32,607 nucleotides of DNA. It comes from a virus. Lineage: Duplodnaviria > Heunggongvirae > Uroviricota > Caudoviricetes. Shown here in pieces: positions 15,001 through 18,000 of this stretch. Made by a program: the position numbers. Each line of letters begins with the position of its first letter. Position 1 is the stretch's first letter. Location: IMG/VR virus record IMGVR_UViG_2585427748_000009. One strand, 5' to 3'.

Positions 15001-18000
15001 TGCGTACAAGTTCCTTAAGCGCAACGGGTTCAAGGTTTGTTTTCATGACCGCTTTATAGCTGTAACCAGTACCGGAGAACAGCCAGATGCTATGGGATTC
15101 AGAAATTCAGCATCATGCCTGATAGAGGCGAAGTGTTCTCGTGCTGACTTGTTAGCAGATAGAAAAAAGCGTTTTCGTAAAAATCCGTCTCTTGGAATGG
15201 GCGACTGGCGATTCTTTATTAGTGAGCCGGGAATTATTTCAATTGAGGATTTACCACCTGGCTGGGGGTTACTTCACGTTGTTAACGGAAGAGTACGGAA
15301 AGTACATGGGTGGCCCAGGGGTAATTGCTGTTGGGGTAATCCTGACGATAAGCCATTTACTGGAAATAAGCAGGTTGAATGCGATTACATGTTATCTGCA
15401 TTAAGGCGCATGGAGTTGAGAGGGCACCTTAATGAAATATATGACGGTGTAATTGTTAATAAGAAAGAAGGAAACGCGGCATGATCACTATTACCAAAGA
15501 GCGACTACTGACAATCAAGCAGTGCCGCGAAACATACGGACCTGGTAGCAACGTTGTACTGCCAGCAGAAGAAGCGGAAGAACTGGCACGGATTGCACTG
15601 GCATCGCTGGAAGCAGATCCAGTTAAACGAGTTAACTCAGATCAGATGCGCCGAGTCTGCTTAGAAGCTAATCGCCATTTAGATAAATATGACGCGATGG
15701 CGAAAGAGGTAAATAAGTTGCTTGGACGCATCGCCCCGCCAGCGCCGGTAGTGCCGGAAGAAGCAACTCCGGAAAACGTAGAAATGCTCTCTGGCTATGT
15801 TTCCACGTACAAATTAACCGATAGCGAGCGCGATATTGCTGCCGAAATATGGAACGCCTGCCGCGCCGCCATGCTTCAGTCCGGAAACTTTCGGGAAAAT
15901 AAAGATTCGTCAACCAATAATTTTCGGAAAATCCCGGAAGCGTCAACCAACCATCCGGTAACTCCGGATGGTTGGATAAGCTGTAGTGATCGAATGCCAG
16001 AAATGGGAGAGCGACAATACTATGTGTTAGCAGCTGACTTTAAAAACAACTACCCACCAAGCATCCCCAACACTCAGGTCGGCGTATATGGCGACTGGTT
16101 TAATGATGGCAATCCCACTTGGGATGACGGTGATGGCGAAGACCTGCATCTCAAAGAAGTAACCCACTGGATGCCGCTACCAGAACCGCCGAAGGAGGTA
16201 CGCCAATGACCTAGCCTGAAGCATTTGCAATTGTAGTGGCTGCCATTTCGATCGCACTGATTGTTTTTGCGATTTTGCCGCTGGGGGTAAAATAGTTCAC
16301 CTGCATGGAGATTTGATGCCGGGGAATTGTGGGGGAGCATTCAAACCTCTCCCCTTCCCGGTTAAAGACTCCATTGCTTTGCGGTCAGAGAGATACATCA
16401 GCTTCATCAGCTTAATGAAACGCATAGATCCGCCATGCTTTTTCAGCAAATACGCTGCCATTTGCGCAACTTTTTCTTCATTAAACATAAATCGGCTCTC
16501 TGTCTCACATGAAATACTCTTTCTGACTATATGTTAATAGCTCCGGTTATTACAGGTTAATGTGTGTTTATTTCTTAATCAGCCCCGCACTTCCGTACGG
16601 GGCCATTTCTGTTAATCCACTCCCACTTTTTTGTTGTACTCGCGGTTAAACCGATCCACGGCAACCTTCATATCCCGCTCTACCGATTTCACCATCGCCG
16701 CCTGCTGCGCCAGACTGAGAGAACTGTCGGCATAAATGGCATCGCGCTGTTTGCGCAAATCCTTCAGTCTCTTCCGGGTATCCTGCATAAGCCCGTTCAT
16801 CAACAATTTTCCGTTGTTCTCGTCAATGAACGCCGTTCTTTCTGCACCGGTCAGACTCTTCAGCTCTGCGTGATACTGCGCAACCTCTGTCATCCGGTCG
16901 TACATCTTCTGCTGGTCTGCATACGGCATCACCTCACCCGAAATTTTCCCCAGGAAGGGCACCTGCTGTTCCGGTATATCAATACCATTCAGCGATTTCA
17001 CCGCCGCATCCGTGGTTTTGGAAATGAAGCGCCCTGTCCCTCCGGAGATATAGTCAATCCAGAATTTCAGCGATTCCGGTGTGATATCCACCGCGCCGGG
17101 ACGATACTGGCTGCCACCTGAGAACGCATTCAGCCAGAATGCAAACGCCTTGTACGCTTCTGGCGTTGAACGTCTTCCCAGCTGGCTGTCAGGTTTTGGT
17201 GTACCAAACGGCATGTTCTCCTGGTAAATCTGCGCCCCCATGAAGTTTTCGTTCATGGCAAGATTCGCAAACGGACGCAGAATTGTCGGTGCTGCATTTT
17301 TCAGCAATGCCCCCGACAACGTTTCCGACGTCTCGCTGCCGATCGGGCTGAATGCCCCCAGGATACCGCCGACAACATTACCGGCAGCACGTGAAGCAGT
17401 CAGGTCGCCCGCTGCCACACCTTCAGCTGTATGACCAAGCAGGAAGAACACGTTGTACCCGTAAGGCAGAGGAATACTCCAGTACTCACCGGCCTTGCCC
17501 CCGAACATCGATTTCATGATGACGAGGTTACGCTCTTTCACATGAGACGGTACTTTGTCGTACCAGTTAACCCCGTCATCATCCTCACCCGCCACACTGC
17601 GGTTAAGCGAGCCAAGCAGATAACCCGCTCCCACAGCTGCAAGCACGATTTTCTGCGGTACATTGAGATTCTTCCAGCGAAGGCGCTCCAGTAACGGCCC
17701 GTCGCCATTAAGATGTCCGAGCGTTCTCACCAGGTTTGCGGTCCCCTGAATGCTGGCGTTGGCAAACATGTACAGCGAGTTCATCAGCATCCCCTGCTCA
17801 CCACGACGGTTAAAGTTCACCGTCATGTTTTTGGCAAGAGACGCCGCCTGCTGGCGTGACAAACCGGCATCACGGGCGTGTTTATAGGCAGAAAGACGCA
17901 GAGCGTTTTCAACCGCGCCGTTGGCATCCTCGACCAGGTTCAGGAACGAATGCCATGCACCGATACTCTGGCCTTTCCATCCGCCCTTCGCCAGCGACAC

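Follow-up and report, generated by a model that had tools for sequence, protein, structure and literature searches.

At the point where two gene blocks of a prophage run towards each other, an open reading frame (ORF) of 63 codons begins like a Panacea-domain antitoxin and ends outside that family: is this frame what remains of a toxin-antitoxin locus, and by which route was the locus lost? We address this question in the viral record IMGVR_UViG_2585427748_000009, a stretch of 32,607 nucleotides (nt) that is referred to as "the window" at its whole length, and in which the Escherichia coli chromosome passes into the right end of a 933W-like (Sepvirinae) prophage. Our answer, to which we assign a probability of about 0.87, is that the frame holds a non-functional remnant of panA, the antitoxin gene of a type II PanA-PanT module that was an accessory cassette at the late-operon end of 933W-like prophages.

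The Panacea segment of the 63-codon frame

The ORF is located on the minus strand at 16297..16488, and its product is the 63-aa sequence quoted in an earlier reading of this DNA (hereafter "the sequence-only reading"). The frame falls into two parts, of which only the first is related to Panacea genes:

16369..16488, minus strand: surviving 5' end of the PanA (Panacea/SocA, PF13274) antitoxin gene, codons 1-40, MFNEEKVAQMAAYLLKKHGGSMRFIKLMKLMYLSDRKAME
16297..16368, minus strand: out-of-family tail of the ORF, codons 41-63 and the stop codon, SLTGKGRGLNAPPQFPGIKSPCR, a read-through of the junction hairpin described below

The search of the whole window by tblastn with the intact 186-aa Panacea protein of a P2-like prophage (comparison sequence L009) has revealed 82.5% identity to stub residues 1-40, at window positions 16488..16369 (E 1.4e-17). 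At the DNA level, the SCU-104 prophage, which carries an intact gene, is 95% identical to window 16368..20611 (L004 4529-8763; blastn), the similarity starting exactly at base 16368. The 63-aa fragment also matches phrog_1281, to which the full-length Panacea proteins of phages belong (E 1.1e-4, over positions 4-48 of the 195 in the profile), as well as phrog_3658 (E 6.8e-39) and phrog_28947 (E 1.6e-21), both of which are PHROG families composed of stubs of this kind; in one RefSeq genome, cM8a, the equivalent stub of 66 aa is labelled as a Panacea domain protein. On the strength of the DNA co-linearity, the protein identity and the phrog_1281 match, the surviving segment is orthologous to a bona fide Panacea member: the intact orthologue (L003:2561-3085) matches PF13274 SocA_Panacea over residues 16-127 (E 2.4e-19, 70.7 bits), and the intact copies are annotated in RefSeq as "Panacea domain-containing protein" or, in some cases, as "SocA family protein".

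The complete Panacea globular domain of ~112 residues, with its α1-α7 and β1-β2 architecture (PMC10440598), is absent from the stub: homology ends at codon 40, and only ~13-16 of the ~112 PF13274 residues are kept (the equivalents of domain positions ~2-15). In the alignment with full-length homologues from related prophages, codons 1-40 are kept and panA codons 41-183 are lost, so that the ~45 matching residues of the sequence-only reading are reduced to 40, and its recognition of a Panacea/DUF4065-like beginning is borne out by the L009, SCU-104 and phrog_1281 comparisons. Judging from these alignments, the 63-codon frame is the remnant of a prophage panA antitoxin gene, i.e. a pseudogene left by ordinary genome decay.

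The missing partner gene

The remnant is situated where the two blocks of the prophage part converge, with plus-strand genes on the left and minus-strand genes on the right; the stop codons of the two terminal genes face each other across the 63-aa ORF, as would be expected from the junction of converging modules that the sequence-only reading had described. The elements on either side are:

15481..16209, plus strand: DUF551 gene (PF04448, E 7.8e-20), last gene of the converging left-hand cassette
16489..16611, minus strand: upstream intergenic region of the Panacea gene, 123 nt, ~97% identical in 933W, POCJ13 and PhiR5_2
16612..24963, minus strand: gene of a 2783-aa polyvalent protein (Pfam LPD38 2.3e-47, LPD5 4.5e-43, LPD1 7.7e-23, MuF_C 1.4e-17), hereafter "the giant gene", which ends the minus-strand block and lies directly upstream of the stub, co-directional with it

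At this same junction, directly downstream of the giant gene, an intact Panacea gene of 174-183 aa is found in phage PhiR5_2 and in 18 of the 5,426 complete E. coli genomes that we have surveyed. All of these intact copies are solo genes, located 89 nt from the IbrB stop codon and 150 nt from that of the giant gene, with no co-directional partner. In PhiR5_2 (L003 ~3085-3115, minus strand), a CAA>TAA change is seen at codon 9 of the long ORF, and the annotated protein restarts at Met10 (MAAYLL...); this nonsense change may mark the onset of decay in an orphan antitoxin.

Less similar intact homologues (45-69% identity) come from E. coli, a Mixta-like source, Yersinia, enterotoxigenic E. coli (ETEC) H10407 and phage Lys8385Vzw; in each of them, a second, co-directional gene of 128-139 aa comes after the Panacea gene, at a spacing of -4 to +29 nt. 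Such pairs are seen in comparison sequences L009, L011, L012, L014, L015 (ETEC H10407) and L017 (phage Lys8385Vzw), and in Rheinheimera sp. KL1 the homologues of the two proteins are on consecutive locus tags; to judge by this gene order, the two-gene module is the normal state of this Panacea family. The intact pairs adjoin a truncated tRNA-dihydrouridine synthase gene (H10407, L015 3001-3989) or an integrase gene (Lys8385Vzw, L017 2926-3914). The ~100 nt at the 5' end of panA also have a match, at 77-79% identity, in about 150 other complete E. coli genomes; those listed (~20) are annotated as "Panacea domain-containing protein", the copy of H10407 being the sole one inspected for a partner.

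The partner family has no Pfam match; it corresponds to phrog_19071 and, at E <= 1e-3, has 729 members among the representatives of clusters at 50% identity. The AlphaFold2 model of the partner, calculated on 80 homologues, has a predicted local distance difference test score (pLDDT) of 97.1 and a predicted template modelling score of 0.90, and the best 50 matches of this model to the PDB by Foldseek are all MazF-family endoribonuclease toxins (MazF, MoxT, YdcE; best E 3.3e-4, probability 1.00); an earlier model from 4 sequences (pLDDT 70.8), which gave weak and mixed Foldseek matches, is superseded. The partner is accordingly predicted to have the SH3-like barrel fold of MazF/Kid and, by analogy, would be a toxin that is neutralised by complex formation with PanA.

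Within the window, neither tblastn nor a profile hidden Markov model of 80 sequences, run on the six-frame translation, has found a partner (best E 1.2), in agreement with the sequence-only reading, which had seen no intact partner gene; the adjacent co-directional toxin gene that defines a PanA-PanT pair is thus lacking there. Remnants of the partner are, nevertheless, found at the same junction in related prophages. In 933W, tblastn places Panacea residues 1-27, then residues 163-185 (EAATVMANSIYEQNNLDMLLGDL), and then ORF L0135, in which partner residues 1-13 (MMFTPYRRGTIPA, E 4.8e-4) are fused in frame to residues ~84-121 (E 1.9e-8), both E-values being relative to a database of four short sequences; beyond the stub the MAFFT alignment of 933W is unreliable, and the assignment of the Panacea C-terminus and of the partner remnants comes from tblastn. 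The intact partner also matches phrog_1925, the PHROG family of L0135 (E 6.5e-10). By these matches, L0135 (L001 2740-2928, minus strand) is a copy of the gene for the MazF-fold partner of PanA whose interior has been deleted without loss of the reading frame. In PhiR5_2, the first ~6 codons of the partner are kept (ATGATGTTCAGCCCTTAT, "MMFSPY", homologous to the start of L0135) and are followed by a hairpin.

Inspection of the junction in related prophages has therefore yielded remnants in 933W and PhiR5_2, and no intact two-gene module. In our phage collection, intact partners occur only in other phage types, and the search of E. coli DNA with L0135 for an intact partner at the junction was uninformative, being swamped by a repeat: the ~40 nt at the 3' end of L0135 (~L001 2740-2780) are similar to repetitive extragenic palindromic elements and recur in 4,905 of the 5,426 genomes. 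The proposal of the sequence-only reading that a toxin-antitoxin locus once lay at this junction and was then deleted or replaced gains support from the 933W and PhiR5_2 remnants and from the bicistronic relatives.

Cassette exchange and the break at base 16368

Cassette exchange has a hot spot where the giant gene meets the ea22/DUF551 block, and three different cassettes are found there:

933W: L0135, a BOF-domain gene and hokW/sokW
PhiR5_2-like prophages: IbrA-IbrB and panA
the window: TraR, DUF4752, Ea22 and DUF551

The locus is present in 177 of the surveyed genomes: panA is intact in the 18 mentioned above, the stub type of the window occurs in 43 (O104:H4 strains among them), the 933W type in ~100, and a copy disrupted by IS3 in at least one. 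The exchange is best seen against the SCU-104 prophage, which is inserted at the same ynfF/truncated-ynfG site: both flanks are common, while window 12999-16367 is wholly different from the corresponding segment with the intact gene (L004 1985-4529).

These forms most likely arose in the following way. An ancestor would have carried the intact panA-panT pair directly downstream of the giant LPD38/LPD5 gene, converging on the ea22/DUF551 block. The toxin gene would have been inactivated or deleted before the antitoxin gene, since a lysogen deprived of the antitoxin alone would die, leaving panA as a dispensable orphan, as in the PhiR5_2 type. Codons 41-183 of panA would then have been removed by deletion or by illegitimate recombination linked to cassette exchange, giving rise to the window type, with the left-hand cassette that ends in DUF551 taking the place of IbrAB and of the 3' part of the Panacea gene. 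The 933W type would represent an independent path of decay, with internal deletions in both genes. The simplest reason for the retention of the 5' end in all three forms would be that deletions cannot run into the giant gene, which is essential.

Homology to intact Panacea genes stops at base 16368, and everything beyond it is unrelated. Two elements follow on the DUF551 side, and one further element is located within the stub:

16318..16362, no strand assigned: stable imperfect hairpin at the convergence point (plus-strand fold -32 kcal/mol, z -3.1, 0 of 200 shuffles as good)
16210..16295, plus strand: conserved trailer of the DUF551 module, ~85 nt, outside the Panacea gene
16396..16413, minus strand: perfect 9-bp tandem repeat, CATCAGCTT twice on the plus strand, which encodes KLM-KLM; read directly

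The sequence-only reading had the DUF551-side sequence begin at the break itself; in fact, a hairpin-bearing segment of ~75 nt (~16293-16367) intervenes, and the DUF551 trailer follows only after it. This segment is confined to the present junction type, i.e. to the 43 genomes, O104:H4 strains among them, with phages POCJ13 and 75/02 Stx (Shiga toxin) also among its carriers; the ORF tail that it encodes has homologues only in other stubs, and the alignment scores of the tail with the Panacea C-terminus or with partner genes are at shuffle level. The hairpin at 16318-16362 resembles one that PhiR5_2 carries between its IbrB and Panacea genes (local score 30, reached by 0 of 2000 shuffles). It is probably a terminator or transcript-end structure common to the intact-gene prophages, and the likeness points to an ancestor of the window type in which the hairpin was already located just beyond the module. 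The Rfam scan gave no match at the stub locus.

The ~85-nt trailer is found, at 73-87% identity, directly 3' of DUF551/Ea22 genes in ~1,100 E. coli genomes and in 933W, and we have assigned it to the DUF551 module because it is conserved in these contexts, which are free of Panacea. In some genomes the trailer is followed by hok genes (hokW in 933W, hokD in L007), and in others by DUF4222 and an integrase; the stability of its fold is ordinary (z -0.3). Two candidate assignments have been rejected. A Panacea C-terminus in the 31-aa ORF 16211..16306 or in the ORF tail ("AATTIANA" against "AATVMANS") is a chance-level resemblance (E 5.9) and lies within the trailer that is conserved without Panacea; likewise, the hairpin segment scores no better than shuffled sequence as the 5' end of six partner genes.

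The 9-bp repeat occurs as a single copy in POCJ13 and PhiR5_2, and in the longer form KLMKLL in the distant intact homologues of L009 and H10407. For this reason, the length seen in the window is ancestral and the site is prone to slippage; KLMKLM as a new duplication is rejected, the distant intact homologues being equally long. The short form of POCJ13 and PhiR5_2 would reflect either a loss of 9 bp or recurrent slippage.

Of the neighbouring sequence, the plus-strand block consists of small early-left or "ea" genes (antA-like, TraR, DUF4752, Ea22-like and others), with the DUF551 gene as the last; a 182-aa ORF of the ea22/DUF551 part (14936-15484, plus strand) has no Pfam match at E <= 1. 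The chromosomal part includes the 3' end of ynfF and a truncated ynfG stub (window 11030-12998, 93% DNA identity to the annotated SCU-104 locus), and the ORF 6892-9318, next upstream of ynfF, is a ynfE candidate by its size and position. At the prophage end, a match to the Rfam family sRNA-Xcc1 (RF02221; window 12208-12292, plus strand), with 53 bits exactly at the gathering score of the family (E 6.4e-7), overlaps the start of the antA-like ORF 12206..12961. The IbrA of SCU-104 has weak BrxP/DndC-like PADLOC matches (E 2.3e-7).

Alternative readings and known systems

The reading of the stub as a decayed panA of a former PanA-PanT pair has to be held against several results that weigh the other way. 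The 63-aa fragment itself has no match in Pfam (E <= 1), NCBIfam or PADLOC. We found no genome in which the two genes are both undamaged at precisely this junction, the ancestral state being rebuilt from remnants, some of which were scored against the small database noted above, and the loss of the toxin ahead of the antitoxin is a step that we infer. By sequence, the partner has no match to PemK, MazF or CcdB in Pfam and no relevant one among PDB sequences (profiles of 7 and of 80 sequences), and the comparison of its profile with the single E. coli MazF by hhalign is insignificant (probability 0.3); its toxicity is a prediction. Lastly, the stub retains its start codon and a Shine-Dalgarno-like motif, so that translation is possible.

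The database misses are what a chance open frame with a coincidental resemblance to Panacea would show, and the miss at Pfam goes, formally, against the identification as the sequence-only reading had framed it. Such a miss is, however, expected from the small part of the domain that survives (only ~13-16 of its residues), and it is overridden by the phrog_1281 match and by the orthology to an intact gene that Pfam does recognise; with the identity over 40 aa, the DNA co-linearity from 16368, the PHROG matches, the homologues in L009 and SCU-104 and the one RefSeq annotation as Panacea, the probability of a chance frame is practically nil. It is also conceivable that the Panacea gene at this junction has always been a solo phage gene, e.g. 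a counter-defence antitoxin against a host MazF-like PanT, and was never part of a pair here. Every intact copy at the junction is indeed solo, at the distances given above, and potential targets exist in the chromosomal PanA-partner modules of E. coli strains such as ETEC H10407. The partner remnant L0135, immediately downstream of the Panacea remnants of 933W, and the partner start ATGATGTTCAGCCCTTAT of PhiR5_2, which is homologous to that of L0135, speak for a former pair: a secondary orphan phase is compatible with these remnants and "never a pair" is not, which makes a permanently solo gene quite improbable.

A further alternative is that the stub has been kept for a function, either as a 63-aa micro-protein or because its 5' region and the hairpins act as a cis element, i.e. 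a transcript end or terminator for the late and the ea22/DUF551 operons. Three independent truncations keep the first 27-40 codons together with the 123-nt upstream region at ~97% identity; the ATG is preceded by the Shine-Dalgarno-like motif GAGAG; this one stub has become fixed in 43 genomes, O104:H4 strains included; and not only the hairpin of the break but also a GC-rich hairpin just past the stop codon of the giant gene (16581-16604, -20.5 kcal/mol, z -5.2) is unusually stable. The promoter scan upstream of the stub found no sigma-70 consensus promoter, and transcription of the stub by read-through is possible because the 16581-16604 hairpin has no U-tract. Against a retained function, conservation is just as high in the adjoining giant gene (95-97%), for which reason that of the stub reflects recent common descent and carries no signal of selection; the stubs vary by in-frame and out-of-frame indels and differ in their end points (31 aa in 933W, 60-63 aa here); the tail is without homologues outside the stubs; and a role of the hairpins would belong to the intergenic structure, not to the Panacea coding remnant. 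Stand-alone Panacea antitoxins neutralise their toxins via the folded domain (Ernits 2023, PMC10440598); because neutralisation depends on that fold, of which the stub retains so little, we expect the stub to have no antitoxin activity and to be almost certainly non-functional, and in the window there is no toxin for it to neutralise (searches negative). A retained function is, on balance, very improbable. Slighter still is the chance that PanA residues 1-40 and the hairpin-encoded tail are translated late, by read-through from the giant gene, into a micro-protein with partial activity, which could, for example, titrate a factor that senses or degrades PanA or interfere with a host PanA-PanT of the ETEC H10407 type; were this true, it would explain the fixation of the same stub in the 43 genomes, including the O104:H4 outbreak lineage.

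With the stub taken as a panA remnant, the gain is chiefly one of annotation: several long-standing "hypothetical proteins" of reference Shiga-toxin phages would be decay products of one PanA-PanT(MazF-fold) module, namely the 60-63-aa ORF of POCJ13, 75/02 Stx and the O104:H4 Stx2a prophage, the unannotated 31-aa stub of 933W/Sp5, and L0135 of 933W. Our literature search combining the Panacea domain with Shiga toxin found no paper. The variants (intact orphan antitoxin, doubly deleted pair and bare 5' stub) would supply a few natural stages of toxin-antitoxin decay, as expected if the toxin has to be lost first, and a broad Panacea-paired MazF-fold family without a Pfam model is brought to attention. 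The understanding of how Stx phages work is unchanged.

Among known systems, hokW/sokW of 933W is found at this same variable site, with the giant gene on one side and the DUF551 block on the other, and on this account the junction is a recurrent landing site for addiction or accessory cassettes; hokW/sokW is, however, an unrelated system, consisting of an RNA antitoxin and a membrane peptide, and the Rfam scan found no hok/sok in the window. Within the MazF/PemK/Kid/CcdB superfamily, the partner would differ in its extra C-terminal helices (residues 104-131), in its conserved residues H20, D55, C58 and H65, which are not the canonical catalytic residues of MazF, and in the lack of a sequence-profile match, a sequence-specific endoribonuclease or gyrase-poison activity of the partner being putative. 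With SocA of Caulobacter crescentus, the ClpXP adaptor antitoxin of SocB and namesake of the Pfam family SocA_Panacea, the intact orthologue shares the Pfam domain; the partner here is predicted to be of the MazF fold, unlike SocB, and the mechanism of a proteolytic adaptor is without support at this locus.

The closest parallel is offered by the PanA-PanT pair of P. moraviensis, which has been experimentally validated (Kurata et al. 2022, PMC8832971); its gene order is A|T, and its PanT, a member of toxin cluster T6, has no conserved-domain match, is similar to EndoA/PemK/MazF by HHpred and inhibits translation (PMC8832971). The partner accessions have no match in the Kurata dataset; the partner family may belong to cluster T6 or to another MazF-like cluster, such as T8. 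The window differs from P. moraviensis in holding 40 antitoxin codons only and no toxin. The module reconstructed here resembles that pair in the N-terminus of PanA (MIFSEQKVAQ in P. moraviensis, MFNEEKVAQ here), in the PF13274 antitoxin of the intact orthologue, in the antitoxin-first order, the two genes overlapping or lying close together (-4 to +29 nt), in the MazF-like partner that lacks a conserved-domain match, and in its setting within a prophage or mobile element.

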